Positions 10,575 to 64,000 are shown, numbered from the stretch's first letter. The stretch: DNA of 64,000 nucleotides from Tubulanus polymorphus (GCF_964204645.1 NC_134032.1:4798175-4862174); one strand, 5' to 3'. Notes: a model not told the origin generated them from the letters alone. Made by a program: numbers and translations.

Positions 10575-10589
10575 GATTCATGCAGTCTA

Positions 10590-22404: not shown

Positions 22405-22522
22405 TGCTGTGAGAAAGTGAGTAAATAAATTGAACCAGAGAAAAAATTGCATCTAGTAGAACGAACACGCTGACGAAGAATTTATGTGACCTTGACCTTC
22501 AATAGTGAAACTAAGTTGAAAA

Positions 22523-41599: not shown

Positions 41600-42289
41600 G
41601 TCAATGCGGACATATCACTTCGCGATTGATTAACCCTCTCATCCACCAGATAACTAACGAGAAAATGCAATAGAATAACTTTTTGGGCCATTAAATCACA
41701 AAGGTGAGGCAAAAAAGCTCATCCAGAGTTTAGGTTATAGTGCAAAGAATTACGCTCAAGCTCTGCAAGTACACACAATAATTGTGTAACTTCGGGGTTG
41801 CAGGTTCGCTCAGGGGACTCTGTTGCTTTGGTAGATTGTTTATGTATCTGTCACGAATTGTATCACTACCCTTAGTCAGCTTAATTACTGTTATAAATTA
41901 AGGAGTAGTGATCTGTTGGAGAAAGAATCACGCAGAGTTCCAACTGAAAAGTGGGCAAAATGGAATTATTTTGTACGAAATGTATCCAGAATGCATGAAG
42001 CTACGTTGTGATCTTCAGCGATTTCTTAAAGATTGTGTTGATTCTGAGTTTGGGCCATACGCTATTCCGTATAAATCTAGATCTCATACTGTAGATACAT
42101 TTCCAGGTAGAGCCAACTCTGTAAAACACACTACTATGATATTGTCAGGCAAAATCGTTTATGCTATAACTGTTTATAATATATCTATAATATGTTTATC
42201 TATAATCCCAGTCATGTCGTTGCTAAATGTCCATCTGCTATCGTTTGTAAGATAAGAGGCTGCGGTAGAAGACATCACACTAGTTTGTA
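41600..42289 (+). pseudogene. Decayed BEL/Pao gag, left part of the element interrupted by the Polinton
   Basis: KGEAKKLIQSLGYSAKNYAQAL, RLCYNC and HVVAKC...CKIRGCGRRHHTSL, reading in frame into 62957 onward once the Polinton is removed. Confidence 0.7.
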
Positions 42290-42382
42290 AGTAATTGGAA
42301 AAGTAGGCTTTCATACCAGAGGACGAGAGGACGAGACACCACTCATCACCACAAGTAATTTTTTTTCCTAATAAATGGGAGA
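42290..42382 (+). repeat. Polinton left TIR
   Basis: Reverse complement of 62865-62956 with 2 substitutions and 1 indel. Confidence 0.95.
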
Positions 42383-42701
42383 TAGAAAAGCATTCTTAGC
42401 TACAATAAATAACAGAATTAAACCAGCAAAAAAACAATTTGAAATAAAAAAGTTAGTTGATGTTACAAAAGAAATTGAACATAAAATATTGAAATTAGAA
42501 AAGATAAAAACTAAATATGGAGAGAAAGTATCAGCGAATTTAAGCTACTGTAATGTTAGTACATCGCGAGAATTTAAAGTGTTTTTACCTGATCAATGGG
42601 TTTCATTGAGTACAGAGGAATTAAAAGATTTAGAAGGATTTAAAATAATCTATCATGGGAAAAATGAAGACGGTCATCATGATTTAGAAATTGTTGATTA
42701 A
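42375..42701 (+). CDS. Polinton hypothetical protein, 108 aa
   Basis: Intact ORF whose ATG lies in the TAAATG motif at the inner edge of the TIR. Confidence 0.7.
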   Translation: MGDRKAFLATINNRIKPAKKQFEIKKLVDVTKEIEHKILKLEKIKTKYGEKVSANLSYCNVSTSREFKVFLPDQWVSLSTEELKDLEGFKIIYHGKNEDGHHDLEIVD

Positions 42702-43893
42702 ATAAGAAATAAAAATAATGAATATCTAGAATCCAAAATGACCTTAGTCGTTTTATAAACAACTACAATCATACAGTCAAACATCTGTTACATGTTATTA
42801 TAAGAGAGTGCTTCATTTGAATATTGATCAATCAAACAGGTGTTGCACAACGTTGTTGTTATATTGGATAGCTAGCAGCTATATAATAAGCACGCAGTAC
42901 ATACAACACACACCAGTACATACAACACACACAGGACAGGACAGGAGGATAGTCATTCTCTCTCGTGATTAAAAGGAATATTTCAATATTTTTACGGTAA
43001 GTTTTAGCAAAACCACCCGACTTGACTCGCAGAGTTTTTAGGGGATAAGCATCCCGTTATTGAGAGGCGCCACGAGATACCTATCCCCAAGCATTTCTAC
43101 TTACACCCCTGTGACCCACACCACGCCAATTCTCCTTCAATATTTGACAGGGAACACATTATATTAAAGGCGCTTTATGCATTTCCTATCAACCCCTTAC
43201 CCCCGAAAGGAGGATCGAAAGTCGAAACTGAAGGAGAACCACGGAGGGTGGACAAAGGTGCATTTTCGAAATGCCCCTGCAAGCCAAGCCCGGCGGCACT
43301 CCAGTGGTTGAATGAATTGCCTGATATACTTAGCTAAAACACCTGAGTAAATGTTGTTGGTGCTTAAAAAATATATGAAATTTGAAATTATGAATTATTC
43401 CGAATGAAAAGAATATGAGAATGAAAACTGATAAATGAATTATGGATTTTTAACTTAATTATGATATAATTTTTAATCAAATTAGTAATCGATTACCATG
43501 TTAATTGATTAACAAATTCAAATTCAAATATTCATTTTAGCATCACACCCCAACCAGTGCTGCCATCTTTCAATTTAAGATACAACTAATAATAAGAAAC
43601 GACTGTAATACAATATTCAAGTAAAAACAAAATAAATTAATAAAAATAATGAATATCTAGAATCCGAAATGACTTATCTGGACAATTTAATTGCTCCGCA
43701 TAGATAGACAAAAGTAGTGAGATGGTGCCGTACGGAACCCACATGGCGATATTCAATTATTTTTTTTGCTTTTTTTCTAAAATATTAATCCATTTTTTTT
43801 CATTGTCAGTTTTGGAATTTCAGAAGTATTTTCATTTTTGATAGCAGTTGTTTCAGAATTATGAATATCATGAATTTTATCTGATTTCTTATA

Positions 43894-44139
43894 CTAATTA
43901 CACCCAATCAAAATGAATACAATTACAAATCCAACTGTAAAATATAAATGATTATCAAATATTCTATTATCAGCAGGAGTAGAAATAACAATATTTTCAC
44001 CATTTTTATTAACATTTTTACTACTTATTTTTTCTTTTACAGCTTTTTTATATTCTTGTGATTCAATTCCTAATTGCCGAGACCATTCAATTTGTTTCTG
44101 TGATCTCGGTTTTTTCTTCACTTCTTCCACCTTGTTCAT
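43894..44139 (-). CDS. Polinton small protein with a transmembrane segment
   Basis: TAAATG start; hydrophobic C-terminus; may be truncated. Confidence 0.55.
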   Translation of the reverse strand: MNKVEEVKKKPRSQKQIEWSRQLGIESQEYKKAVKEKISSKNVNKNGENIVISTPADNRIFDNHLYFTVGFVIVFILIGCN

Positions 44140-44677
44140 TTATTATAGAAATATTTTTACCTGCAATATTTGAAAATGTTATAACCCCAGTTGATAATAA
44201 TGTCATAAATCCACCTAATTGAAATGATAAATATCCAATCCATTTATTTAATTCAGTCATAACTAAATAATCATTTTTTAAATCGGAATATAATCTATTT
44301 TCATCTTCAATTGGTAGTATATAATTACATAATTTACTATAACCTTTTACTACGTTTTCTGATATCGCGTCATCAATTCTAGCTGTTCTCGCGGCTTCAT
44401 AAATCTTAAATAATCTAATAATTTCATCTGATTTCATTGTATCTAATTCATTATATGTTAAATTTTTACCGACAAAATTTTTACATTTTCCAGATGCTAT
44501 TAATATTTCTAATTGATGTTTACAATAAAGATAATATTCATAATTATTATTTGTTGTAACATTATTTAAAGCACCATCATCTGGAATTAATTTGTTTTCT
44601 GTTATTCCTAAATCATCTAAAGTTTTTTCAATTGGAACATCACCATTTTTAGATTTTATTTTCTTTTCACCTACCAT
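44087..44677 (-). CDS. Polinton hypothetical protein, 196 aa
   Basis: Intact ORF, TAAATG start, hydrophobic stretch near the C-terminus. Confidence 0.7.
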   Translation of the reverse strand: MVGEKKIKSKNGDVPIEKTLDDLGITENKLIPDDGALNNVTTNNNYEYYLYCKHQLEILIASGKCKNFVGKNLTYNELDTMKSDEIIRLFKIYEAARTARIDDAISENVVKGYSKLCNYILPIEDENRLYSDLKNDYLVMTELNKWIGYLSFQLGGFMTLLSTGVITFSNIAGKNISIINEQGGRSEEKTEITETN

Positions 44678-44699
44678 TTATATAACAAAAAAATTAGTT

Positions 44700-44970
44700 G
44701 TGATGTTGCAACTAGAATTTAAATAGAATGTAACTAGAATTCAACTAGATTAACAAGCTAGTTGAAATATTGTTGTTTTTGTTTATTTCTTGTTAAATCT
44801 AGTTGATTTTTGTTCCAACTACCAATAACTAGAATTCAACTAGAATGTAACTAGAATTAAACTAGATTAACAAGCTAGTTAAAATATTGTTAAATCTAGT
44901 TGATTTTTGTTACAACTACCAATAACTAGAATTCAACTAGAATTCAATTAGATTAACAAGCTAGTTGAAT
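44700..44970. repeat. Internal tandem/inverted repeat array (CAACTAGAAT / CTAGTTG)
   Basis: 11-bp units in direct and inverted orientation within a higher-order ~100-bp duplication. Confidence 0.85.
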
Positions 44971-45582
44971 TTAAATAAATTCATATTTAAATGGGTGTTG
45001 TAATCTAAATAGTAATTTTGATCTTTTAATATTTTTCAACTTATCCATATATTCATTACGTAAATCATGTGGAATAATATCATTTTCCTCAAGTGCATTT
45101 TTCATCGATTTTTCTATCTTTATTGAAGAATAAAACTAGAAATCTTATATTCTCCCTAAAGTCTTTAACAATTGAATTATATTTTTGATTTAAAACCCAA
45201 GTTGTTATCCCAAAATGTCTCCCAGAGAAAGCTAAATAACATAACTCACTTTCTCTAACTTTTGAATCATGTAAATTTGCGCAATCATCTATGATAAATA
45301 ATGTATTTGATCCTTTATAAATATCAATTGCTATTTTTATACAATTATCTAAATTTTCTTTTACTGTTTTAAGATCTAATATAATAAATTTATTATTTCT
45401 AGTAATATTTCTATCATAAGTTTGATTAAATTCATATGTTGGACAAAATAATACTATATTATCAAAATAGTTTTTTTATAAACAGTTTCTAATAAATTTA
45501 ATATAAAATAAGTTTTTCCACAATTTGTTACACCAGAAATTAACATATTATGAGGCTCAAATATGAATAATTCCTTATTCAT
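44971..45582 (-). pseudogene. A32/FtsK-like DNA packaging ATPase (frameshifted; not in the ORF track)
   Basis: Manual translation: Walker A ISGVTNCGKT, Walker B LFIIDD, SGRH motif, WVLNQ. Confidence 0.85.
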
Positions 45583-48500
45583 TTATATATTTTTAATTTT
45601 ACTTGATAATATCCATTCATTGAATTTATCTGGCCATCCAACCCATTTTACTAAAGAATATTTTTTTCTTTTAATAGTTTTTGTTTTTAATACTTTTTCA
45701 ATTTTAAATTCTTGTTCTAGATTTTCAGTAGTTAAACTCAATTCTTCTTCATAAAAATACCCATCAACTTCTTCACCATCTAAATCTTCTAATTTATAGA
45801 CATATGGTTTTGTTGTTATTACCTTTTTTATTTTATATATTTTATATATTATTTATATTTTAAAATTTCGATCGTATCCTTTATCGAATATCTTTTTATA
45901 CTTAGATATTCTAACATTTTGGCCAACTTTAAATTTAGGGTCACCAAAATCATCTACAAGAAATGCACCATAAAAATTATTCCAAACAATTTCAGCATTT
46001 TCAGGTTTTCTAGCATCAATAGGTTTCATTCCAATAGAAGAATGATAAGAATTATTATATCCTTCTATCAATTTTGGTAAAACATCAATCCATTTCAAAG
46101 TATTATTTGCTGTAAAATATTTCCACATTATTTGTTCTTAATGTTCTATTAAATCTTTCAACAACTGCCGCTTTTTTATCCGATTTTGTTGAAAAATATT
46201 TAATATTATGATTATCTAAGAGTTCATGAACAAGTGAATTATCAAACTCTTTTCCATCATCAAATTGTATTTTTTCTGGTTTTAGTTTATCATCCGAAAG
46301 AAATTTTTTTAAAACATTTGATGTTTGTACAGCATTTTTTCTATAAAGTGGGAAACTCCATACATAACGACTAAAAATATCAATTATATTCAATAACCAC
46401 CAATAATCATCATTATCTTTCTTAACATTTTTCATATCAATTAAATCTCCTTGCCACTGTTGATCTACATAACTTACCATAGTTCACGAAGGTACAGAGC
46501 CGCAACTTTCAGCGACTTTGACACCAAACACGTGAACTATCTAGGTGCGCGAATGTTGTTATGACGTCATAATACTCTAAATAAAAAACACCGCGCGGTC
46601 TCGCGATACGCGCGTGGAAGGATCTAAAATCTATTCTGCGATGTATTTTAAATAATATTTATAAAAGAATCCATTTAAAGACTATAATTAACATATAAAA
46701 CATAAAATTAATTGAAAGCAACATCGCTGGAAGATTAGTTTTAAAAATTTGATGTCAATCATCAATTACCGCTAGTCAAAATGGCGCCCGTCATGATAAA
46801 CAAGACGGAGAATTTTCTTTAACTGACTGGATCTGGTATAAAATGTAGTATTTCACATCACAAATGGCCCAAGTCCGTTTAAAAGAATAACTGTACCGCA
46901 CTCAAGGCACCAAGGTTGGAATATGGCTATGGATCATGACAAAATAGTGCGCTACGACCGATAAAATATCAGCTGTCGGTACTCGGTCATGCCATGTGGT
47001 ACAGGCCTACTACTACTCTTCTGTCGCATGGAATCGGAACCTGATTCCCGAAGCAGCCAAGGTCCTAACGAGAAGAATAAACGAAACAAATGTAAGTATC
47101 CTGCACTCAATTCTACGGTGTCTAATTATCTTCAAGTGTCTACTCCATCCACACTTTAATGTAGTCTACAAAAACATGGACAAGCAATACTTTAGTAGAT
47201 TAGGTTCTCATCAAACAATCTACTGGGGGTTGAGTGTACGTGTAGGTAGTGTACTCACTGCTACTTATCTTATTTTTAGGAAACATTTTTGACAGACCAC
47301 CTATCTACTAGTGAATGATTTTTCGAGGACCCGAAAAGTAGGCCTAGGCCTCTTAGAGTCGTAAGACGGTAGGCTATTCATGTCATTTATTTACATAACT
47401 ATGAAGTCTTGAAATAAATTTCCACATGCAATTTTTTTATTTCAAAGGCAATGTTTTTTTTTTTCAGAGAGTTCAACCGGTTACAGGAACCCGAACAATG
47501 CTAATTTAGAGGTCAACTTGTGACTAGATAAGCCAGGTTTACAGGATTGGAGATGATAAAGAGTGAGTAGGCCTCACTGACTGAATGGTAAATACATCAT
47601 CTGTAGTCATCGCTGCTGTATTGAATCATTTAACTTTCAGCAATCAATTGATTTTTTTGTTTGCTTTTATTCATCTTTAGTTGATGCAGATATCAAGTAC
47701 AAGGGCATGAAGTTGAATCTTTAAACTGGGGATTGTCAAGATTTTACTTGTTTCCATCTTTTCACTTTGATGTTTGAATAAATCTAAACATATAAAAGAG
47801 CTTTTTCTTATGCGTATTCTTGAAGTCGTGAATTCCTATTCATTCCTACTAACAGAAGAAAATAAGAGAAGCTTCGTCTACACTTGCATCTTATACCGAG
47901 GTTATGCGTCTACACTAAGCTCGAAACACGGGTTGAATGCAAAAAGCCAGGTTTTTGAAAAAGGAGTTATATAACCTATTGAGAATTGAACCTATGTTCA
48001 CGAAAAACTCTACAGATGTGGATTCAGTTACTGGAGCTAAATTAAGTGTAGATGCAGCCCTGCAAACGCTGGTTTTTTTATGAACCCGCATACTTTGAAA
48101 CCCGGGTTCAACGAGCTGTGGACGTGGTAATATATATCGCAGTCAGAAAAAGAAGCAAATTGAAAGTACATCAATCTTTTATTTCCAACCTAAAACAATG
48201 AGACAGAAGGTTTGAATGCAACAAGCCATTTGAGCAATTGCGGTTACTAATTTGTAAAATGTATTGATATGATATGGAAGGCCAACTGCTGAATTCCATG
48301 GGTACCATCAGAACCAAATGCACGCTACTTGCCATCTACCTGAAATAAACAATTGTCAATATTATGTTATAAACAAATAAATATGAAAAAAATGCAAATT
48401 TCTGCTTGATACAACTTACATTTGAATGGGAAAAATCGGTTATAAAATATCTGCTATGTCTGACAAATAACTGACGAATCCTATAAAACAAAAAATATAT

Positions 48501-50006
48501 TATCTTTAAAATAAAATTAACAATTCAATGATTTTTGGCAATCTTCCAATACAATATACATAGGTCCCTAGTAGGCCTACGCTAACACTAACTGAGCCAG
48601 ACAACCTGATATCCATTCAAACAAAACTGAATTCGACATTAGATGTGAGATGCGTGAAAATGAGCCATAGGCTGGTTTTCCACGAGAAACAGATCAATCA
48701 AATTTATTTCCCTTTAGCCGTTTCCACAACAAGGGAGCGGCACTGTTGGACAGGACAGACACACATTTTCGAGTCTGTATTAATCAATTGTTTACTGTGA
48801 CTGCGCAGTAATTAGTCAGAATTTTCAGGGAAATCCCCTACAAAAATGGCCCCACCACCCGAAGACCTGCACACAAATTTCTGTGTCAGAGCCAAAATTG
48901 AGGTAACGCCTGCGCTTTTACGCCTTTCTTGTGGAAAATCCTAGTTTAGTCATATTACGCAACGAAATCAATATTTCCTTATGCCAAATGATTATTCTCA
49001 TAACAGTCTTTCATTTCAGGATTCAATAAGTCTCAGTATGTGGCACTAGTCCAATTACAATAATTTTCGAATTTGGTCCGCAGTTTACGATTAGGCCTAA
49101 CTTGATGACGCAAATTCTAAGTCAACTCGTAATAGGGAGTACACATTCTATATTTCAAAATTGACAGGAGAACAAGATCTAATTACGTATGTTTTCAGAT
49201 TTCGAAAGAACCCAATTATATTCCAGTAAAAGTCATCAAAATTAATAAGGTAAAAACGCTAGCTCATAAAATTAGTTTTGAAGTAGTACGAGAAACTGGG
49301 AATATCTCACTTATTTCCAATGCCATATAGACATATAAGGTATCATTCGATTCGTTTCTAGATGGGTTTTAATACTATTGGGTATTTGGATGACTGAACT
49401 GTCTATTCTACCTTAAATTCTTCCAAAACTTTGAGATTTCGCAGGCCCAAAACCGGCAAAATGACAAAATTACTTCCTGGTTTTTAGCGCCGCCCTGAGA
49501 AATTAATATGGCGAAAGTTGAGAAAACTGGAACATAGCTAAACGCTAAAACACGTATAATTTCGTTTTAGATATGTTTCGGTTCGAATCCCAAATACTTA
49601 ATACCTTAAAACGTGACATAAGTCCGGGTGCCGTTCCGTATTCATTCAACACGCGCGCTCAACCGCGAAGCTATTTTTAGCGCAACAATCAATTTAACCA
49701 ATAGAGACGCGCTACGTCATAACGTTCGACATGGTCGCATTTGCCTTTACTCGTACTGTCGTGAGTTTTACGAGTTTTATATTTTCTAACAATTTTTTTA
49801 TGTGTTGTATATGTTGGTTGTTCTAGCATAAATTCATTTATATCTTTATATTTAACTAAATTGTGTGGGATTATCTTATCTAATTTATCTTGTTTTACTT
49901 TACTCCATATATTTTTGGTAGAAGAATAAGCAACCGAACTCTCAGGGTTGTAATATAAATTTCTTAAATATTGTTCTTTAGTATTAGGAGTTTTTTTACC
50001 TCCCAT
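45583..50006 (-). pseudogene. Retroviral-like (rve) integrase with a C-terminal chromodomain, split by the 46485-49763 insertion
   Basis: LYYNP N-terminus (49764-50006) joins in frame as RKT|MVSYVDQQWQGDLIDM. Also IDIFSRY, QFDDGKEF, VVERFNRTL and chromo LVKWVGWPDKFNEW. Confidence 0.92.
46485..49763. mobile_element. Non-autonomous Chapaev-like DNA transposon
   Basis: CACGA...TCGTG termini with imperfect TIR, 4-bp TSD AGTT (46481-46484; 49764-49767); removal restores the integrase frame. Confidence 0.85.
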
Positions 50007-50036
50007 TTATATATCCTGAATTTTAACTTTATATTT

Positions 50037-51285
50037 CTAATATTGAATACTATCTAATTGTGAATTTACAATATTTAATTGCGCATCAGATATAATATAA
50101 ATATGCGTTTTGAAATTTAAGCTTCCTTCTTTCTTTTTCATTAATAATTGTATTCCATCTTTAGTGTTCTGTAGTTTTTTTTCCAGAACCATGTAATGAA
50201 TTATCCTCTGTTGTTCTAAAATCTAACCATAATGCGTATCTATTGCCGGTATAATAATCAATTTGATTAATATTACAATTTTCAAATGATTTTACTTTTT
50301 CATTCATAACATGTTTTCTAATTTCTGGCCACTGATCAATCATTCTCATTCCTTGACAAAATATTTTATTTGCTATTCCTTCGATAGTTATTTCTACTTT
50401 TGTTATTTCAGGATTATAATAATTATCTACCTTTATTGCGCCATTAGAATATGTTACAATGGTAAAAAATATTAATATGCCTTTAATAGATCTTCTTGGG
50501 AAGTTAATATTCTCATTAATTATTTCATCATTTGCATTAATAGTTACAGTTTTAAATTTATCAATATAATCATATAATAATGAAAATCCTTGATTGTATT
50601 GAGTTTGAATTGTGCTAGCAATATTTTCATTAGTTACTGTGTTATATTCTAAACATATATTCGATAATTTATAACCCATATCTTTAACAACGCTAGATGA
50701 TAAAATTTCATTTACAGGAGCAAATGTTATCTCAAATATAATATTTTCTTGAATTACATATTTATACGAAGGTGCATTATTATTTATCAATTCATAGTCT
50801 AATGGAATTTTATATTTGCTTCCATAAATCTTTTTAATCAAATTATCTGTGGCACGAGTTACTATTGTGTCATTAGCTCCCGATCTTAATTTATTATGGT
50901 TTTTCGATTGAATGCCCTGAAATATCATATTATTTCTATTTTCTTTAGTTAACCATACATCTTTATAATGCATAAATAAATTATAATCATCTAATGAGAA
51001 AACTGTTTCTGGACCAATCTTTATTGTTAACTTTTTAATCAAATATCTCCCAACATTATCGACAACATAATTATTATCATGACCTGTTACTTTTATATCG
51101 GCTGATAAATAAATACTATTTGGAACATAAAAAGTGTTTTGTGTTAATCTAGGAATTCAAACATATAAAGTTTCATCCGAATTAATATTTGAAGGATTAT
51201 GAGTAATTATATGATGTGATCTTTCTGCTTTAATAGCATTAGATATTCTAGAAATCTTAGAAGGACTTATGTAACTCCCACTCAT
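50037..51285 (-). pseudogene. Major capsid protein (double jelly-roll, putative)
   Basis: ~415 codons from the TAAATG start at 51285 with one stop and one frameshift; beta-rich pattern; size and position fit a Polinton MCP. Confidence 0.7.
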
Positions 51286-51305
51286 TTATTTAACAAAAAA
51301 ATTAA

Positions 51306-52750
51306 TTATTTATTTTTTATTATTTTTTCCTGATATCTTTTTGATATCATATTCACTAACCCAAAAATAATAGCACTTACAACTGTAATTAAAAATAAGA
51401 TAATATGTTCAGCAGCAAAATTAAGAATATTCCCAGCAGATTTCAATATAAAACCAACAATTGATGCAATAATTCCTGGTAAAGCTGCAGCAGATTTTTT
51501 AGATAGTTCCCATAAATATTTTGCTAATTTCTTTAAACCATCTTTAACTTTATATTGTATTGAATTATTACCTGGGGGTTTATCCGGTTTATTGGGAGTA
51601 GGAGTAGATTTTAAAGAATTTGATATTGCTAAACCAATTGTTGTAAATAACATAGTAACAGCTGTTAGAATTGAAAGAATTGTTATTCCTTCTAATTTAA
51701 ATAATAATTTTATTCTATCTTTCAAGGATAAGTCAGAATTTGGTTTTATTCACAAATCTTTAAAAATAACTTTTAATCTATTAATATTATAATCATATGA
51801 TTTTAATAATAATTTAATTTCTTCTTTTTTAATTCTATGTTATATTCTAAATCATCAATTTCTTTTTCTAAATATGCATTTCTTTTTTTAAATTCAATTT
51901 CTTCAATAACTTTATTATCTCTATCTAATTTTAATTGTTCTATTTCTTTAATTTTATCAGTTCTGTCTTTTTCCAAAGTTCTAATTTTAAAATCTCTTAT
52001 ACTTTTATCATGCGCAATTTTATCAGATGCATTTCTTATGCTAATAATCTCTCTAATTGCTTTATCAAAAAATATATCTAAATCCTCTAGTTGTTGATCT
52101 GTTGCATCAATTAATCCATTCGGTAAAAGTTTTTCAATTGGAACTTTATTTGATTTAAGTTTACTAGTTTTGGAAGTTATATTTTGTTCAGAAGTTGTTT
52201 CTGTTTCTGATTTCTTTTTGATTATTTCAAATAATTCATTAATTCTTTGTTTATATACGTCTATATTATCATCTATTTCTTTTTGTGTAACATCAGTTAT
52301 TTCATTACTATTACTTAATATTTTAATTCTATCTGGTTTTAATTTTTCTAAAGTTGATTCTGATAATATTCTATTTTTATAAGTGATATCAATATAATTA
52401 TCACCTTTCAAACGATAATAACATTTACCATTATCTAAAAATTTTAATTGATCTGCTAAAAGTCCAACGTCTTCATCATTTATGTTAAGTTTAGATTTTT
52501 CAATTAAATCTTCTAATTTAGGTATTTTGTTTAAATTATCTAAATCTTGTTTTACTAAATCTGGGTCTAAATTTTCAGGATTTAATTGTGATTCTGCATT
52601 TTTAATATAATCAGGCATATTTAAATTATTATTATATTCTGGCTCATTACCGTCATTAAAACTTGTTTCATCAAAATCAGGTGGTTGTTCATCACTTATA
52701 CCAGGTTCATCAAAAGGATCCATTCCAATATCTTCACCTTCTACATCCAT
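51306..52750 (-). pseudogene. Acidic/coiled-coil protein with C-terminal membrane helices
   Basis: ORFs 51803..52750 and 51306..51725 are colinear and only the first has a TAAATG start. Confidence 0.6.
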
Positions 52751-52978
52751 TTATATAATAAAAAATTAAAATTTAAAATATAATATTCCTCCTATAACAA
52801 TTCCTATACAAGTTAAAGCTAATTTAGTATTTTCATGGGATTTATTATCATAATAAGTTTTAATTATATCATGCTGAATATTATCAGTTTAAATATTTTC
52901 TGTAGTATTGTAATCTTTTATTTTGGAATCATTATTTAATTTAATATTCTTAGTTTTAGTTTCTGTTGATTGAATGTG

Positions 52979-54174
52979 TTATTTATTTTTTTCGCCTTCC
53001 ATTAATTTTGGAGCAGTAATAATCTTTTTATTTATATCATTTAACCCAAATGAATTATTTATTGTTGCAGTTTTAATTAGATTATTATAACCAATTATAT
53101 TTCCCATCTTTAATACTAAATCATTAGAAATAATTAATAGATTAGGGCCTATACAATAATTTAATCTTATATGTGATTTATCTAAATAATTTTGATATCT
53201 TACAATGTTTTCTGGAATCGATCTATTTTTATCATTATGAATAGAATCTTCAAATAATACTTTGAATTGTTTCTGTGTATCAAATGATGTATTTAAATTT
53301 CCAATTACTGGGGATCTTGTTTCAACTTGCGCACCTAAAATACATATCAAATGAGTTCTAATAGATTGATTTATTCTTTGTATACCTGATTTTGTAAAAC
53401 CTTCATTATTTTCTAAAATGAAATAAACCCAACCATTATTGTTTTCTTGTTTTAAATCATCATAACATTTCGGTAATTTATTGAAATTTAATGTTTCTAA
53501 ATCCTTTGTTTCTATTTTACCATAACCTAATTCATTATTATAGATATTATAAAAACTATGAGATGGTATGGGAAGTGCACAATATTCTGCAATCTTTTTA
53601 GGGCAAGGAAGTGATCTTATTGTTCCAATTTTCGTTCTAAAATCAGAATTATTTATATCTATATTAAATTCCTTACAAATTTTATAAACCTTTGATAAAT
53701 TAATATTATTATCTAATTCTTTAAAATATCTAGATCCTGGTAAAGCACACTCTAATTCATTTAATATTATTCTTATTTGAAAGTATGTATGAAATCTAAA
53801 TAAACTTTGAATTAATTTATATTTAGAATTATTCAAATGATCATTCCAACTTATACCACATCCTGGGGTTGCACAATAAACAGCAAAATTTAATTGGTTC
53901 TGCCAATACTTCATATTAGATTTTAATAACCATTGTTTTTCATCTTTCAATTTTTTAAAATTAATTAAATATACATGAAATATATTTTCCATCTTTGCAT
54001 TAAAATTATAAGTTTCAGTAACATAAATTTCTAAATTAGTTAATGAATCTATAACTTCATCATTTCTATATGTAATATCTTTATTAAAATCTATTGCTGG
54101 AATATTATATTTAATTGATTTATTATATTGGAAAGCTTTTGGAAAACTATCTACCAAGCTTTTGGAAACCCCAT
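52979..54174 (-). CDS. Polinton hypothetical protein (~400 aa)
   Basis: Long ORF; likely true start at TAAATG 54174, disturbed by a short duplication; C-terminus probably continues to ~52770 via frameshifts. Confidence 0.65.
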
Positions 54175-54190
54175 TTATATAATTAAAAAA

Positions 54191-54616
54191 TTAATAATTT
54201 ATTAATTCTTTTAATAATTTATCTTGTTCTTCAACTGTTATATGACCATTTAAACTTATGATATAATCTAGTATGTTCTTTAATTTATTAATTTCTTTTA
54301 TATTAGTTTTAATTTTTTCTTTATTACTTTTTATATCTAATTTTGAACTTATACCAGTTAAAACACTTGAACTTAATCCTAATACACCAATTGATATAGC
54401 TAAAGGTGTTAATGGACTGAATATTGCTAGAAATGTTATTACAGAACTAATTGTAACCGAACCACTTATAATCAAATAATATATAATTTTAGATTTTAAA
54501 TATTTTTTCTTTTTAACTTTTAAGTCACTTTCAAATTCTAATATTTGTTTTTCTCAATATATTTTTAATTTAGTTTTATTTATATCATGAGGAATAATAT
54601 CAATATTATCTTCCAT
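54191..54616 (-). pseudogene. Small two-TM / coiled-coil protein
   Basis: TAAATG start at 54616 is in frame with ORF 54191..54475; one internal stop. Confidence 0.55.
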
Positions 54617-54635
54617 TTATTTAGAAAAAAAATTA

Positions 54636-55058
54636 CTAATTAGTAAACTTATAAGCAACAAATATAACAATAACAGTTCCGCCTAAAATCCAAATTATTT
54701 CATATTTCTGTTGTTCTTTACTTGGGGTATAATAATCTGATAATTTAGGTTTGTATAGATGTAATTTTTCTTTAATTGTTACTGCGTTATATAAACTCAT
54801 TGCATCATCAACTGATTGAAAATCTCTATGTGAAATCTTCTGATCATATAATTCTTTGCTAATATAATCCATATAGTTTCGCCTCTTTTCTCTATATTCT
54901 TCTGCTGCTTTATTGTATTTCTCTAATGCTAAGTTATTTCTTCTTTGTTCTCCTAATGAACTATTTTTATCAATATGTTTAAATAAATATCCACCACCAG
55001 TAAATCCTAAAGCGTTAACAATTGCCCATCCTATAATATTTATATTTGCAGAAGCCAT
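54636..55058 (-). CDS. Polinton hypothetical protein, 140 aa, Gly-rich hydrophobic N-terminus and C-terminal TM
   Basis: Intact ORF with TAAATG start. Confidence 0.7.
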   Translation of the reverse strand: MASANINIIGWAIVNALGFTGGGYLFKHIDKNSSLGEQRRNNLALEKYNKAAEEYREKRRNYMDYISKELYDQKISHRDFQSVDDAMSLYNAVTIKEKLHLYKPKLSDYYTPSKEQQKYEIIWILGGTVIVIFVAYKFTN

Positions 55059-55082
55059 TTATTTAGTAAAATAATTACGCAT

Positions 55083-55303
55083 TTATATGGGAGGAATATA
55101 TTTTTGTTTTTCTAAATAATCAAAAGTTAAATTAGATAAAGTAACTGCTAACGTTAATTTTAAGATATCATTTATATCAAATCTATCAACATTAACACTT
55201 CCCATTTTAATACATTTTTTAATACCATTGAATAACATACAGTTCCAACTGATAGTAATGCGCCATTATATAATCCAGTTATTATCCACTTATTATCACT
55301 CAT
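55083..55303 (-). pseudogene. Small hydrophobic protein (~73 aa, one frameshift)
   Basis: TAAATG start at 55303; manual translation MSDNKWIITGLYNGALL...YLEKQKYIPPI. Confidence 0.5.
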
Positions 55304-55443
55304 TTATTAATCGAAAAAATTACTATCTTTAAAATATTTAGTTAACTTATTTACGATTAATTCAACATTTATTTCATTACTAGTTTCATTTGTATATATT
55401 TCAATTATTATTTTTTTAATATCATCGATGATAAAATCTTCAT

Positions 55444-55665
55444 TTAAACTAATTCATAAAATATTAAAGATTCTCTAAGTAAATTAGTAATCTTTTCTAC
55501 ATTTAAAGTTTCTTTATCTATTGTTGTTTTATACTCAAATGTTGTTTCATTAGAAAATGATATATTTTTGATATGTGTAATTACATCATTAATGTTAAAT
55601 TTCATTTCTTTCACACGTTTAAAATCAAATCCAAAACATATGCTCGGCCCAACAGTTATATTCAT
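55444..55665 (-). CDS. Polinton hypothetical protein
   Basis: TAAATG start; probably extended to ~55320 originally. Confidence 0.5.
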   Translation of the reverse strand: MNITVGPSICFGFDFKRVKEMKFNINDVITHIKNISFSNETTFEYKTTIDKETLNVEKITNLLRESLIFYELV

Positions 55666-55681
55666 TTATATAATGAAAAAA

Positions 55682-56444
55682 TTACTCTCTACATCTTATA
55701 ACTAATTCATAAATTACAGGAAAGTTATTCAAATCAATTAAATATCCATTATGATTTCTTATTTCTAATTTAAAATTATTAAAATGTGGAATACAAGGTT
55801 TAAAATCACATTCAGCTAAATTATAATTTATTTGCGTTCCAAATTGTTTAACATTTTTTAATGGTAAAATATTTAATATACTAGAATTACAAATTGTATC
55901 TTTAGTTGCTTCAAATGCTTTTGTAGGACCAATTAAATTGCAATAAATATAAAAATGTGTAAAAGGTATTATATTTGATATACATACCATATGTGTTTCT
56001 AGTCATAATACGCGGTTTAATTCCTAACATTTTAGCTATTGGTTTGTGTACCATAAATGCATGTTTGCGTTCATCATCTAACTTTATTTTAATTTTATTA
56101 GAACTATCACTTTTTATAAATCTAATTGAAAATTTATCTTCACTTTCAAGTTTTACTTGTGCTCTTCTATTAATTTCTTGGGCTAATGTTTCTAAATTAT
56201 ATAACCCTGGTTTTAAAAATAGATGAAACCATTTTCCTTTATCTTCATTAAAAATCAAAAAGACTCTATGTTCAAGAGTTTTATCCGATATATTGTAAAA
56301 TGAGTTACATAAACTTATATTTACTAATTTTAAATCTACACAATTCTTAAATTCTCTATCTAATTGTACTAGTAAATTATGTGATTTATAATTTGTAAGT
56401 TTTCTAGAATCAACAAATATTCTGTATTCTTTTAATTCTACCAT
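55682..56444 (-). pseudogene. Minor capsid (penton-like, single jelly-roll) protein
   Basis: Two overlapping ORFs; SFYNI, PGLYN, FYIYCNLI and NGYLIDLNNFPVIYEL motifs typical of Polinton minor capsids. Confidence 0.7.
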
Positions 56445-56512
56445 ATTTTATAACATAAAAAAATTACCGCTCATCACTAAAAATTAATTTTAATAAAATT
56501 TTTCCTAAATAA

Positions 56513-57740
56513 ATTGATGAGAAGATAGCATGCGAAATTTGTGGTGAACTTCTAAGAAAAAGTAATATGGCTCGACATATGAAAAAACATGATGAAAATT
56601 ATAAACCCCCTAAACTAAACTGCCCAAAATGTAATAAATTATTCACACGAAATTATGTTAAAAAACATTCAGAGAAGTGTAGAATTAATGGCACAACGGC
56701 TCATGTTGATAGTTATGAAAGTAATAGTAATTCTGCTGAAGTTGAACCTGAAGTTATTTGGAAAAGACCTTTCTTATTCTATGATAAGGATAATATAAAA
56801 GATCATTTCTGTGAGCCTCGTCGAATGAAATATAGCCCTGAAAATACAGAAGATTGGGAAAATCATCAATTTCGTAAAGCACATATAGATAAAATTTCTA
56901 ATAAATTTGAAACTGAATTCAATGAAAGAAAAGATAATTTATTAGAAAAAAATAAAATATGAGAAAACGTTACCAGATAATAAAGAAACAGTTGAAAAGT
57001 TAGAAAAACAATATAATGAATTAACAAGAAAAACATATTATTGTAAATATTGTAAATTGATTATTAGAACAAGTAATTCAAATCTACATAATAGAACAAT
57101 AAAACATAAAGAAAACGTAAGAAAATACCAAGAGCTTAATGAAGATCTATTACCAATAAATTATAAACAAAAATGCCCACAATGTAGTTATGCGACCTTA
57201 AGGCAAGAAGGTACTGTGTTATTTTGTAATGAATGTGGATGGCAAAAGAATTTATTGGGTGAAGAAAAAACTAGAAATTTTCACATAGATCCAAAATTAA
57301 ATTATCTTGATGAAATTTTTAAAATATTTTCTATAGAAGATCATACACCAGAATATATGCAATGGCTTGAAAAAATGAAAACTATAGAAAATAAAAATGG
57401 TGAAATAACAAAAAAAGATATTATAAAAACAATTATTCCGTCAACATTTAACACAAAACAAAAGAAAATGTATTTATATTTATTATTTAACGATTATTAT
57501 GAAAAACCTAAATTAACAGAAGAAGATATGAAAAATATAAAAAAAATATTCAAACAAATATTAATGTATTATTTGGAAAATAGAATAACAGATTCAATAA
57601 ATTATGAATTCTTTTTAAATAAGATTGTAAATTATTTAAACCTAGATATTATAATTCCATTTGATGAATTAACAAACAAAAAGAAACAAAGAGAGCGAGA
57701 TGATATGTGGAACAAGATAGAACAAGGAAGAAGAACCTAA
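56513..57740 (+). pseudogene. Zinc-finger protein fused to a poxvirus VLTF3 (A2L)-like late transcription factor domain
   Basis: Three C2H2/C2HC fingers, then CPQC-x11-CNECG, NYLDEIF, INYEFFLNKIV and KQRERDDMWNKI. Start apparently mutated (TAAATT at 56510-56515); frameshifts at ~56950-57010. Confidence 0.6.
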
Positions 57741-57803
57741 ACAATTAAATGAAAATGAAGAAGCCAATAGTGATTTCGAGTATGATAATATTGATTTTAT
57801 GTT

Positions 57804-60800
57804 TTAATAACCATAAGGTAATGTTTTTATACCATCATCTAAAATATGCCTTTTATCATCAAATGGATTTAAACTAGTTTTTTCAACTTCATTAATGTAC
57901 ATCTCGTGATCTTCTGATCTTAAACAATTCATTTTGTGTTTCATTACAATTGATTTATATAAACATTTTATATAATCTAGAAATTCTATATGTTTATCAA
58001 CCACATGTTTTGTTATTCCTTTTAACTTTTTAGCTTCATGATCTTTTGTTCTATAACTATACATTTTACTTCTTATCCCAACAAATTCAATCATTTCATC
58101 ACCCCCTAATTCATCTTTAAACTTACCAGGAATCTTTTTATTATCATTGCTAAATAGTTCATGATCTTTGGGATAATTGCTAAAATCAAAATGATGTTTT
58201 AATGTTTTTAAGTCTTTTGTTATATCATTTGTCTTGATTTTTAGTATGTAGGCGTCCGTATTTTTGGCTATTAATGGAAATCCACAGTTAAATGTACCAT
58301 CTTCAGTTGATAAATCATAAACATAATCTGTTGGGTTATATATTTCAAATAAATCCTTAACTTCTTCTGTTAACTCATTTTCTACATGGCTTAAATTAAA
58401 GCAATTTGGTTTAGATTTAATCAATCCAATATTCATATTAAAACCTAATTAATTACATAATATATTCAATCCTGATATAGCAACTTTTCCTTTTTGAGCT
58501 AAAGATATCGTTTTGCGGTTTTTGAAACTTTTTGAACAATCTGCAGCATAAAACCCAATGAAGAACCATTTTCTTAAATTATTTTTTGCATTTAATACAT
58601 AATCTGGTACTATCTTTTCTTTAGTTGAAGTATTACTTTTCACTATTGCATGAATATAGAATTCATCATTATATTTTATAGCAAAATCTTTAGGATTATT
58701 TACAAGTATTCTATAAACTGCTGTTGATTTCATATGATCCACGATGTTTTATGTGAATAAACTTCTTCACAGAATTTCTTTATTCTTTCTAATAATTTTA
58801 AGTTTTGATTGCATAAATACCAGCAATATTGAGTGCGATTAACATAATTATACACACCTGCTGAACCATCTCCCATGAAAAATCCTTTGATAAGATATTC
58901 TTTTTCTTCTAATGTTTCGGGTTCTATGTTATAAATATTATCAATTATTTCATCAAATGACATATGATTCATTCTTTGGAAAAATCTTTTATGTAATAAT
59001 TCATCTCCAATTTTTATATCAGTTGGTTTTATTTCATTACCATTTCGTTTAATTAAACTATGATCTTCTGTAACATCTACAAACCCTAATTTAGTTCTAA
59101 CTCTATAAATTTTCTTATTTGTTTTATGCCTAATAATATTCTTTAATTTTTTCCATCCATTTCTTGTCCAAATATCCATTAAACCATTTATTTGTATTAA
59201 TTCTTTTTCACCATATGAAATATAACATTCATTTTGTTTTGGAATTATTTCTGAAATTTTCTTATCAATATTTTATTATTCCATTTTAATAATATTGGGG
59301 TGTCAGCTGTTACAGAATCAAAATATAATATTTCAATATGCTTTTCCCCAAAAAGTGGTTGTAAAACATTATAATAAAAATCATACATTAATAATTTTGA
59401 TACTCCTAAAACAGTTGAACCAATGAATATAGGTTTATTAAATTTCATTGACGTTCTTTTTAATTTAACTGCTGTTAAATAATCTTCAAATCTTTTATTT
59501 CCTAAATGTCTAGGACTTGATTGTAGATGTCTTAATCTTTCAGAATTATTTACTAATTCAATATCATTTCTATTTCTAATATTTTCGCATGTTTTACCAT
59601 AAAAACTATTATTCATTAATTTGAAGAAATCTTTTTCAAAATCTGTTTTTGATATGGTTCTCTGTTGAGTATTGAAATCTATATATTTTTCTAACCACTT
59701 CGATTGATTAAATTCAATATATCTATGTACTTTCTTTAATTTCATTCTTTGTTTTAGATAAAATTTTAACATTCTATAATGAACAATATAATTGTATTTA
59801 TTATTTTGAGTAAGTATTAATTTTTCTGTAAAAACATGATCTTTCGGTTTTATTTTCTTCTGGTATTCACTTAAATAACTATCATCTACGGTTAAATGTT
59901 CTGGGCAATAAGGTAAGTTTCTTGTTTTAAACTTTATATTTTCAGGATATTCTAAATCAACTACAAAGAAATAACCAATTGGTGCTTCATCTTCTAAACT
60001 CATAATTGCGCTTTCCCAATTAGTTTTATCATCATTTTCAACTTCTGTTAATATAAAATTTTTATATGGTTGAGATTGCATCATTGCCCAACCATATAAA
60101 TTATTGGCGTCAATATATAATAATTTATATTCATCATTTGCTTTAAAATACCTATCTCCCATAACACCACTAATTCCACCTCTAATTGATTTTTTTTCAA
60201 ATAATAAAACCATATCTGGTTTTTTTAATAAATCTTATTCTACATTTGTATATTTTTAACCACATTGCCAGGTTAAACCAGGACTTGAATAACAATAACA
60301 AGGATCAAAATTAAAATGATTCAAATTAACTTCTCTAAATTTTTCAAATATGTCAGCCAATATCATAACATCGGATTTTAGATATAAATCAACTAATTCA
60401 CCATGATTTTTTATCTCAAAATGGTTCCAAATATTTAATGTTCTATTAAACACTTCATCTTTCACATACTCCTCTTTTAATTGATCATAAAATTGATCTT
60501 TTAATAATTCTGTTACATTAAAATCATTGTGTGTTTTATAAAATGAATAAGGAATTGCGCCTTTATATCTCAATAATTTAAAATCTTCGTCATTTGGATA
60601 ATAATATCGAGTTATTATAAAATCATTATCAACTAAACTTTTTTTGATAAATTATCTAATGAACTTGCTAGAAATCTATAAGAATCTAAAAATCTAATGC
60701 AACCAAATTGAAATGAAATATAATTTTCAGATGTTTTAGCTAATAGTTTAAAATCATATTCTCTTACATTTACACCATTCATAGCATTATATTCTTCTAT

Positions 60801-62872
60801 TTCTTGATTAATTGTACCCAATTTGTTTGGTAATTGTTTTATAAATAGATGGGTATCATAGCCTGATAAATTATGAAATAATATTGGTACGAAATTAACT
60901 TTCTTAGCTTGAATATTGCAATCTTCATCAGCAGCTCCACGATATTTTGAATTTAAATGATCGTGATCTCTAACTTTTTTATCAAATGAATAAAAACGTT
61001 TTTCACAATAACAACAATGAGTTGCATAATTAAAATCAATTTCATCTTCTTTTGTCATAACTATTTTTTTATTTTTGTTTAATAATTTTGCAAAATCACT
61101 TTCTAATTCAATCATTTTGTCACAAAAATCATTAACTACATCTTCACCTCTAAAAGAAATATATTGACTTTCATATAATTCGGGATAATTTGATTTTATA
61201 TAAATTCCATAAGGAGCAGCTCTTTGATGAACTTTTTAAATTGTATTTATAATTGGTGGGTCTTGTATTGTGTCTTCATTTAATTCATTTCCTTTATCCA
61301 TTGATTTTAATAATTGCTTTTTGTTATATATTTCTTTTCTATCTTGATCAGTTAATTCTTTATTCAACGATTCAAAATCCCCATAAATTACAAATGGAAC
61401 AATATTTTTAAATTCATGATTAGTAAATTTCAACTTACAATCTTTTTTTGTTGGCATTATTAATTTACAAAAATCTTTATTATGACATAATTCTTTATGT
61501 TTTAATAATGTATTCTCAGTCATAAATTTAGATAAACATTTTCTACATAGATAAATTTTATTATGGTGATCACTTACTGTTCTAAAGAATAAATCAATTT
61601 GTTTTAACCACATATAATGTTCATTTTCATCTTTTTTGTTATATAACAAATCTATAGCATTTTCATCATCATAATATTCTGTTAAATATAAAGCTTCCAA
61701 TGTATAATCTTTAATATTTTCACCTTTTGTCTTTGGTAATTGCATTAATTCGAATACATTTATTTTTAAATTATTAACTTTTTCTATTTTAGGAATCATT
61801 TTTTATAGTTACTGGATATTGATCAATTTTATATAATGTTTCATATTTCCGGTAATTTGTTATTCTAAAACTATGTGTCATATCTTCTGTTGGGTGTAAA
61901 CAACTAATAATTGACCATAGAAAACATTTATTATCTTCATTTTGAACATTTATTACTGCTTTTGTTGTAAATGGTAATTTAATATAAGATGATGCTTTAA
62001 TATCCTTTTCTGTTGTAAAGTTTGAATCATTTTTAAACATTTTATTACTTTTTGATGTTTTATTCCTTTTTGTATTGTAAACATTTAAATCTAAATATAT
62101 AATTTCATTCAATGTTAAGCCAGAACCCTCAAAATATCTTTCTTCAATACGACGTTTAAATACATTAAATATTTTTTCTAACTTCTTTTTTATTTGTGTT
62201 TTTGAAATTATTTCTTCAGAGAGTGTTTGAATATTATAATCCATTTTTTCTTCTGACTTTATAAAACTTACTTTCCCAGAGATACTAATTTTTGGATATT
62301 CAACATCTGTTATCAAATCTAGTATTTTTTCTATTATTTCATTAAATTTACAATAATCTTCTATTGTTGTACCTTTAAAAAATTTAAATATAATAGCTGC
62401 AGGACCAATTTTACTATGTAATGTTTCTAAAATTTCAATTGTATCTTTTATTTCTAATGAATCAATATAATTTCTAACATTTTCCATGTAAGGTTTATTT
62501 GAAATGGATTTAGTTTTTGAACTTGGTTTTTTTACTTTTTGAGATTTATCATCAAAATATTCTGATCCTAAAACATTTTTATTTAAATTTTTATAATGTT
62601 TTTGTGATTCGAGATGTCTATTATAATTCCTTTTTACTATAAATTCATTACAAACTTCACATTTTATTTCATCCACATTCATATTTTCTAATCTTTCTTT
62701 TCTTTCATTGGAATTATCTGGAGTTTCAAAATCTATTAGAATTTTTTATATGATTTGCAGTTTTTTCATGTCGTGTTTTATTAGATGTATCGATGTATTT
62801 TTTACAATATGTGCAATAATATTGATTTTTATTAACATTATTGTTTTCTGTCTGGTGTTCATTCTCTCCCAT
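57804..62872 (-). pseudogene. polB: Protein-primed family B DNA polymerase with N-terminal zinc fingers, an endonuclease VII-like insert and an intein
   Basis: ExoI YGDFES, ExoII FHNLSGYD, ExoIII YLKSDV, SIRGG, motif A YIDANNLYG, motif B KLMNNSFYGK, motif C YFD|TDA, KMY, KLKGI; multiple frameshifts. Confidence 0.93.
58260..59316 (-). mobile_element. Intein with a LAGLIDADG homing endonuclease in PolB motif C
   Basis: Block A SVTADTPI, block B VDVTEDHSL, block C LIKGFFMGDGS, block E FFIGFYAADCS, block F YVYDLST, block G IAKN followed by Thr+1; two frameshifts and one stop. Confidence 0.9.
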
Positions 62873-62956
62873 TTATTAGGAAAAAAATTACTTGTGGTGA
62901 TTAGTGGTGTCTCGTCCTCTCGTCCTCTCGTATGAAAGCCTACTTTTCCAATTACT
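62865..62956 (-). repeat. Polinton right TIR
   Basis: Reverse complement of 42290-42382. Confidence 0.95.
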
Positions 62957-63960
62957 TTTGTATAAATCAGATTTTAGGCAAAATATTGTCAAATCAAATT
63001 CAATGGAAGAAGTAGGTATTTTGAGCAACCACACGCGTAATTCATCAAATATCTATTTTCAGGTGATACCTGTTGCAGTGATCGGAAAGAATGGTCGCAC
63101 CGTCGCCACTCATGCGTTGCTGGATTCAGCTCTTGACATTAGCCTCATCAACGATGAATTAGCTCAAGAATTGGGTTTAAAGGGTAAGAAGCAAAGCCTT
63201 ACCATTAATACCCTGTCAACGAGCGTTACTGAAAACTCTCAATGTGTGTCGTTTAAACTGAGGGCTTTGAATGCTCCATGTACTAAATCTGATATACTAG
63301 TAGTGGGATCGGCGTATACAAAATCTGGTTCATTTCGATGCCAAACTCAGAATAAGGCTCTTTGTCAATCACAATTTAAACATTTGGAAGATTTGCCAAT
63401 TGCAGACGTCAATCGAAGTGAAGTAAAGATTTTAATTGGCGCTAATAATCCCCGTGCACATGTTCAGCTTGAAATTCGGGAAGGGCTCTCCGATCAACAA
63501 CCAGTGGGGATTCGAACCCCCCTAGGCTGGTGTATTTTGGGTTCATCATCGCTTTTGCTTACTGATTCATGTCAGACCATCGTAAACAATACTGACTCTG
63601 AAGAGTCATCTCTTGATAATTTAGTTGAACGTTTCTGAGTCATTTGGTGTGGCTTTTAAGGAGTCTAAAGGGTCTATCGATGATCAAAGGTGTGAAAAAA
63701 TTCTAAAAGAATCTACAAAACTCGTTGAGGGTCATTATGAAATAGGCATGTTATGGAAATCAGATGATTCTGTTTTTCCTGATGGTAGGAATTTGGCGTT
63801 AAGTCGATATAGAAATTAAGAGCGTAGGTTGAAAGGTTCCGAGGGTATGCTTCTAAGTTAACGGAGAGTGTGTTAGCGTTTTCAGGGTCACGGATTTGGT
63901 ATATTCCTCATCATTGTGTGCTGAACCTGAACAAACCAGGGAAAGTTCGAGTGGTTTTTG

Positions 63961-63994
<34 letters not shown>

Positions 63995-64000
63995 GCTATA
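62957..64000 (+). pseudogene. BEL/Pao pol remnant (aspartic protease and start of RT), right part of the interrupted element
   Basis: [56 protein letters not shown]. Confidence 0.85.

Follow-up and report, generated by a model that had tools for sequence, protein, structure and literature searches.

A two-part motif resembling poxvirus late promoters marks the gene starts of a decayed Polinton and its relatives

The DNA stretch analyzed here, a window of 64,000 nucleotides, contains a decayed copy of a Polinton/Maverick element, 20.7 kb in length, at positions 42290-62956. Its ends are those of Polintons/Mavericks, with terminal inverted repeats of ~89 bp, AG...CT termini and a 6-bp target duplication. 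The gene set agrees with this, comprising a retroviral-type integrase (rve, E 4e-11) with a chromodomain in the same gene, an A32-type packaging ATPase (Pox_A32, E 4e-7) and a protein-primed DNA polymerase B (pPolB). Two pieces of the latter match DNA_pol_B_2 just under the Pfam gathering score, and its intact relative P0134 matches PF03175 with E 5e-17. The probable major capsid protein, a putative double jelly-roll protein, shows a weak Capsid_N match only (E 0.006) and has 1021 homologues; a probable minor capsid protein is also encoded. No sign of a Lavidaviridae-type capsid was seen: neither the window capsid nor that of the related element L001 matches Sputnik_MCP, whereas that of the Sputnik-type virophage L127 does. 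An adenovirus-type maturation protease gave no Pfam match in 32 window frames and the scanned proteins of the relatives L001-L003, although a divergent one could escape such a scan. Among window and L001-L003 proteins no RNA polymerase gene was found, the polymerase-named NCBIfam matches being intein segments. Rfam yielded no match in the element or in four relatives.

Nearly every gene of the element begins with a two-part motif consisting of an AT-only, mostly T-rich core at -18 to -11, a short spacer and TAAAT lying over the start codon (Table 1). Exact TAAATG is found at 13 of the 15 window gene starts (12/14 with the terminal repeat counted once) and at 30 of 31 gene starts in the four relatives L001-L004, a number that overstates independence since L003 and L004 are near relatives. 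Overall, 43/46 starts (93%) carry it, compared with 78 of the 1143 other ATGs that come first after a stop (7%). Gene starts were set by open reading frame (ORF) calls and homology to L001-L004, excluding L001:7588 (a fragment that follows a break), L004:4700 (truncated where its contig ends) and short ORFs on the antisense strand; each window start is the start of a homologous intact gene in the relatives or lies within the terminal repeat. Within the element alone, 13/15 starts compare with 31/439 other first ATGs after a stop (binomial ~1e-13), and the enrichment is still <1e-8 when the terminal repeat is counted once and a conservative 15% background is assumed.

Table 1 Position of the Polinton copy, its genes, its motif copies and its insertions, in window coordinates.
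Feature	Position	Strand	Basis
Polinton/Maverick, decayed copy	42290..62956	.	AG...CT ends; 6-bp target duplication at 42284-42289 and 62957-62962
Left terminal inverted repeat	42290..42378	+	closes with promoter motif and start codon of 108-aa gene
108-aa gene	42375-42701	+	homologue at L001:125, 73%
Promoter motif, A-richer core, gene of unassigned product	44137..44160	-	matrix 14.6 bits
Promoter motif, T core, 196-aa conserved gene	44675..44698	-	pattern and matrix match
Promoter motif, A-richer core, A32-type packaging ATPase (44974-45582, broken)	45580..45603	-	homology, matrix
Secondary DNA insertion (3.3 kb) splitting the integrase, short inverted ends, 4-bp duplication	46485..49763	.	
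Promoter motif, weakest exact copy, integrase-chromodomain gene (45583-50006, insertion-split)	50004..50027	-	9.7 bits
Promoter motif, T core, probable major capsid gene (50037-51285, broken)	51283..51306	-	homology, matrix
Promoter motif, T core, homologue of L001 485-aa gene	52748..52771	-	homology, matrix
Promoter motif, T core, homologue of L001 442-aa gene	54172..54195	-	homology, matrix
Promoter motif, T core, SLATT-like two-membrane-helix gene	54614..54637	-	domain scan, matrix
Promoter motif, 140-aa gene	55056..55079	-	homology, matrix
Promoter motif, small conserved gene	55301..55324	-	homology, matrix
Promoter motif, small gene	55663..55686	-	homology, matrix
Variant motif (T core present, initiator inexact), probable minor capsid gene (55682-56444)	56442..56465	-	homology, pattern match
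Degenerate motif and start of zinc-finger/VLTF3 gene	56492..56515	+	12.7 bits; intact motif at L001:11054
Zinc-finger protein, C-terminal VLTF3 (poxvirus A2-like late transcription factor) domain, two reading-frame pieces	56513..57740	+	Pfam, ESM Atlas, Foldseek
Protein-primed DNA polymerase B, many breaks	57804..62872	-	homology and domain search
Intein with LAGLIDADG-type remnant in polymerase motif C, broken, limits approximate	58370..59305	-	domain and structure-based matches
Right terminal inverted repeat	62869..62956	-	closes with promoter motif and DNA polymerase gene start (62872)

In the upstream part of the motif, positions -18 to -14 contain no G or C in any of 46 sequences, and T occupies -12 in 41/46 and -13 in 35/46, that is 9-10 nt before TAAAT. 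The T-rich core is fixed 6-7 nt upstream of the initiator. A five-T run at -23..-7 precedes 27/46 true starts versus 4/78 other TAAATG (Fisher 4e-11). Searching for the full pattern with up to 2 mismatches gave 11 matches against 1.7 expected, a number reached in 0/100 shuffles, and the motif architecture is matched 21 times in the element versus 0 in 43 kb of flank. Using a matrix trained on the relatives alone, the top 13 matches in 64 kb, on both strands, are all true starts; the integrase start ranks lower (9.7 bits).

An earlier note on this DNA had named 13 coordinates, all of which carry exact TAAATG with the ATG at the given position, and had rightly described 56513(+) as a degenerate copy. 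This degenerate state is private to the window copy, as 218 of 222 reads of run X6 over the site carry another letter. Two of the 13 copies, 42375(+) and 62872(-), lie in the pair of terminal inverted repeats and therefore count as one observation, and the list of "nearly every gene" overlooked the 15th start, a variant copy at the minor-capsid start 56444(-). The T tract it placed ahead of the motif holds as a five-T run at 11/15 window starts, while the cores of the ATPase, the integrase and the gene at 44139 are A-richer. Enrichment over background and conservation in related Polintons, which it had proposed as checks, are both evident from the counts above.

The motif-bearing relatives L001-L004, with capsids 70-74% identical to that of the window, form one well-supported group in a capsid tree, apart from mollusc-named Polinton capsids (a quick tree of 39 of 120 listed homologues). 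Outside this group TAAATG is found at 0/4 starts in each of the short contigs L005 and L006 (capsids 37-39% identical) and at 0/11 starts in the virophage L127. The distant contig L128 (L128:1-9034; polymerase 37% identical, 38% GC), which encodes an ATPase, an integrase-chromodomain protein and pPolB, carries it at 7/7 starts. At L129:95-117, a polymerase start with a T core has TAAAT two bases before the ATG (matrix 11.9). Eight giant-virus metagenome loci chosen for one motif match have TAAATG at 6/36 other starts, and all 80 such loci at 32/358. Among 120 of the ~510 motif-bearing viral stretches, none with several genes had the motif at more than 3 starts (best 3/5). Capsid and ATPase scans of viral contigs found no relative. 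In the relatives, a deoxynucleoside kinase gene (Pfam E 2e-31) and an HNH-like gene (L001:10340-10981 (-) and L003:5568-6083) both stand under the same motif, acquired genes thus being refitted with it.

According to published descriptions, vaccinia late promoters place TAAAT(G/A) across the site of transcription initiation, separated by a spacer of 5-7 bp from a core that contains T (PMC5294985). The base after TAAAT is typically a G, so that the motif runs into the start codon, and a T is conserved ten bases upstream; intermediate promoters combine TAAA with an AT-rich stretch further upstream (PMC11980589). Judged against these descriptions, the Polinton motif has TAAAT(G) over the start codon at 43/46 starts, a T-rich core 5-7 nt upstream and a T ~10 nt before TAAAT, and its geometry agrees within one base with the vaccinia late promoter, in a comparison with published text rather than poxvirus DNA. 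Orthologues in salmon gill poxvirus are marked with TAAATG as well (PMC4542343). The late initiator of African swine fever virus (ASFV) is TATA with variable spacing (PMC7163114), the late signal of pacmanvirus is TATATA (PMC11788076), the promoter of Cafeteria roenbergensis virus (CroV) is TCTA (PMC5294985), and Gezel-14T and PgV use AAAATTGA (10.1101/2022.07.28.501842). As these signals differ from that of the element, a likeness of the pox type is favoured. The poxvirus late-promoter likeness proposed in the earlier note is thus borne out by conservation in relatives, by spacing against published vaccinia promoters and by the VLTF3 encoded in the element (see below). An A-rich core trend is seen at 44139, 45582 (ATPase) and 50006 (integrase) and in their homologues in L001-L004, with T-rich cores in the capsid-region genes. 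This split resembles the intermediate versus late distinction of vaccinia, a speculative parallel; several of the A-rich cores overlap coding DNA.

Other signals were less informative. The suggested link to the poxvirus early terminator TTTTTNT did not hold up: its depletion in coding DNA (17 vs 39.4 expected) is matched by a general avoidance of homopolymers, with A7 (43 vs 102) and T6 (7 vs 32.6) as depleted as TTTTTNT, which leaves the terminator idea without specific support. The T tract also precedes genes that have no upstream neighbour, contrary to such a link. AATAAA is not depleted in the element genes (173 vs 166.9) nor in nine host-side ORFs (5 vs 5.1); since this control behaves alike, AATAAA counts are uninformative on nuclear transcription.

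The element itself encodes a putative late factor. Its frame 57165-57737 matches Pox_VLTF3 (PF04947) with E 4e-6, above the gathering score, as well as VLTF3 clusters in the ESM Atlas (0.96), and the combination of a zinc ribbon with the PF04947 helical domain is that of the VLTF3/poxvirus A2 family. A VLTF3-like protein is retained in relatives, with three homologues (P0121-P0123) of which none reaches the Pfam family alone; a homologue search with the longer VLTF3 piece gave no match. Folding of the single sequence was poor (predicted local distance difference test, pLDDT, 51), while a model from a four-row alignment reached pLDDT 80.5. In Foldseek, the top match of this predicted structure was cowpox A2, ahead of an unnamed protein and then two entomopoxvirus VLTF3, with identities of 14-23%; no match in the PDB was obtained at E 0.001. 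In L001, the VLTF3 gene stands behind a full motif (L001:11054). Profile scans of the window and the relatives' proteins detected no VLTF2 or other late factor. VLTF3 has already been reported in a subgroup of polintoviruses, including coral polintoviruses (PMC11131425; PMC8502044).

An intein is unusual in an animal nuclear genome, and the one found in the polymerase gene sits in motif C, the same site as the inteins of large-virus polymerases. Its closest relative is that of the Polinton-type polymerase P0134 (66%). Three Polinton-type polymerase inteins form a clade (support 99) that is sister to those of the Pol-delta-like viral polymerases P0147-P0150 (support 97), in a quick tree of 45 of 64 full inteins that left out the broken intein of the window. 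The intein implies past co-residence or contact with a large DNA virus.

The motif is confirmed as real and conserved, and the mechanism proposed for its reading is likely. Our analysis leans towards a post-replicative promoter recognized by a helper's RNA polymerase, the helper being a large DNA virus of poxvirus type that infects the same cell, and transcription by a large-virus-type polymerase of whatever kind is clearly probable. The helper polymerase would start inside TAAAT, and slippage on the A run would produce a non-templated poly(A) leader directly before the AUG, such as has been described for vaccinia and for the linear plasmids of yeast (PMC6211774). The genes would be transcribed one by one as separate units, and the VLTF3 of the element may join or bias the late initiation complex of the helper. 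Polymerase, integrase and VLTF3 all stand behind the same signal, leaving no visible early class, so all genes would be post-replicative, and copies in the host genome would lie dormant pending infection by a helper, in the manner of mavirus and CroV. The best reading of these data is a probable virophage-like lifestyle.

Several points weigh against a poxvirus as the helper. No helper virus emerged from the 120 viral stretches mentioned above, and the match to poxviruses is one with published descriptions. The 31 starts in relatives are not fully independent given the closeness of L003 and L004, and L128 scores poorly for the T core with the matrix. In Foldseek, the VLTF3 of many other large viruses match below the poxvirus ones, and with identities of only 14-23%, rank order owes as much to the compactness of the domain as to descent. 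VLTF3 also occurs in mriyaviruses, which lack an RNA polymerase and are thought to use the nucleus (PMC11253617), and yeast linear plasmids, which have a polymerase of their own, likewise use TAAAN initiators (PMC6211774). The intein's relatives outside Polintons lie in Pol-delta-like, non-poxviral large-virus polymerases, and no poxvirus polymerase is among the 60 best solved-structure matches shown for it; the intein counts against a purely poxviral history. Finally, a pox-type helper leaves unexplained by what route its polymerase, being cytoplasmic, would gain access to copies integrated in the nucleus.

Some of these points would suit a virophage-like element read by a non-pox polymerase, supplied either by a different large DNA virus whose initiator is TAAAT or by a companion cytoplasmic element with a viral-type RNA polymerase of its own, as pGKL2 is for pGKL1 in yeast. 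The intein sister group in Pol-delta-like large-virus polymerases fits such a source, some giant-virus loci have the T tract and TAAATG at a minority of starts, and yeast elements combine a TAAAN initiator with poly(A) leaders; moreover, to our knowledge, the late promoters of most large viruses that infect invertebrates have yet to be mapped. We nevertheless judge this origin unlikely, as the giant-virus loci reach 6/36 starts versus 43/46 in this lineage, and the published asfarvirus and mimivirid signals are unlike the motif, which also lacks the yeast upstream element ATNTGA. Alternatively, the element could be autonomous, with its own VLTF3 steering the host nuclear RNA polymerase to a private promoter and the pox likeness inherited along with the factor. 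In line with this, the element integrates in nuclear DNA, is present in high copy in its host and keeps a VLTF3-like protein in relatives (P0121-P0123), and mriyaviruses have VLTF3 without a viral RNA polymerase and are proposed to replicate in the nucleus (PMC11253617). However, the VLTF3 gene itself is behind the motif at L001:11054, which leaves the element without an early gene of host type, the profile scans turned up neither VLTF2 nor any other factor, and L128 has the initiator with no VLTF3 seen in its 9 kb (an incomplete contig). An initiator atop the ATG also leaves no templated leader for scanning. We therefore regard autonomy as doubtful.

TAAATG can also be read as a stop codon followed by a start codon, and the genes are tightly packed and mostly co-directional, as expected if the motif were a translation signal, either an A-rich start context or stop-then-start coupling on polycistronic RNA. 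Yet its TAA is the stop of the upstream gene in only 1/21 same-strand pairs, the motif is also present before divergent and terminal genes, a T core at fixed distance (-18..-11) is foreign to start-codon context, and the more distant Polinton contigs L005 and L006 and the virophage L127 lack the motif, which makes this account very improbable. Chance composition of 22% GC DNA, in which TAAATG is common across the window, has a negligible probability and is refuted by the background (7% vs 93%), the shuffles (0/100), the held-out matrix and the presence of the motif at 38% GC in L128.

Apart from the motif, the copy is heavily decayed, most genes being interrupted by stops, frameshifts and two insertions. 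Gene order is collinear with intact homologues in the relatives and is broken only at frameshifts, stops and an insertion, consistent with genes without introns; both this and the AT-richness reported earlier are in accordance with our data (GC ~21-26% in the element outside insertions vs 29-47% in the flanks). The insertion that splits the integrase gene resembles a non-autonomous Chapaev-type transposon. A 35-bp direct duplication (42708-42742 and 43639-43673) encloses ~0.9 kb of foreign-looking DNA. An 80-nt block at 43642-43721 is 84% identical to L001:2433-2512, each copy following the stop codon of a different gene; it folds no better than shuffles, has no Rfam match and may represent either the relic of a gene or a 3' signal. 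Both elements carry a repeat array that separates the ATPase from the gene next to it (window 44710-44970; L001:9085-9400), with unrelated units. The flanks (9630-10577 (-), 22520-27733 (+) and 62960-64000) contain an intronless rhodopsin-family receptor and BEL/Pao retroelements, and the host is therefore very likely an animal. Copy number is high in organism A, as 12,617 reads from 1,934 million bases of run X6 fell on the 3.2 kb covered by read mapping (54560-57800). These reads are mostly 90-99% alike, at a depth of roughly 70-1,100, indicating many diverged copies.

Animal Polintons could be nuclear viruses in their own right, parasites of larger viruses or mere transposons, a question long open and in large part owing to their silence. 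With a uniform helper-type promoter their lifestyle becomes testable, and a sequence signature is at hand to sort host-transcribed from helper-transcribed Polinton lineages. We tentatively raise the possibility, at less than even chances, that a widespread animal Polinton lineage consists of endogenous virophages whose helper is a poxvirus, yet to be discovered, of invertebrates other than insects. Copies in the germline, numbering in the hundreds, would be silent until the poxvirus arrives, whereupon its polymerase, together with the element's own A2-like factor, would divert late transcription, forming an inherited antiviral system. If true, endogenous virophage defence would extend from protists to animals, pox-like viruses would be expected in invertebrate groups with none described in the literature searched, and the promoter signature could predict where they exist.

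Among known systems, vaccinia late and intermediate promoters share the T-rich core, the 5-7 nt spacer and TAAAT(G) over the start codon (PMC5294985, PMC11980589), and the yeast pGKL linear plasmids share pPolB and the TAAAN initiator (PMC6211774); unlike the present element, which encodes none, vaccinia and the pGKL plasmids encode their own RNA polymerase system. Animal Polintons and adintoviruses, including coral polintoviruses with VLTF3, have the same architecture as the element, and the accounts of them (PMC8502044, PMC11131425) contain no occurrence of promoters or inteins. Nor did the literature searched, with most subscription papers outside it, contain a report of a TAAATG/TAAAT motif in animal Polintons. 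Mavirus and the endogenous mavirus-like element EMALE04 are likewise integrating small DNA viruses with integrase and pPolB that use the late promoter of a large helper, CroV, and are silent until it infects; endogenous mavirus-like elements with the helper's late promoter are those that reactivate (PMC10945749). They differ in their protist host, virophage-type capsid, TCTA promoter and a helper that is known and tested, whereas the present element has an animal host, Polinton-type genes, a pox-type motif, its own VLTF3 and a putative helper. For the Polinton-like virus (PLV) Gezel-14T/PgVV of Phaeocystis globosa, dependence on a large virus for transcription was inferred partly from shared promoters (10.1101/2022.07.28.501842), although in this algal system an early AAAATTGA motif stands on 5 genes rather than a late TAAATG on all. 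The entomopoxvirus-associated PLVs of Barth et al. 2024 are proposed poxvirus hyperparasites in animals; found in moth occlusion bodies, they are likened here by description, not sequence, and the main text reporting them has no occurrence of promoter, TAAAT, motif or intein (PMC11296320). The use of helper promoters is already known in protist virophages and PLVs, and PLVs are already known to accompany entomopoxviruses.

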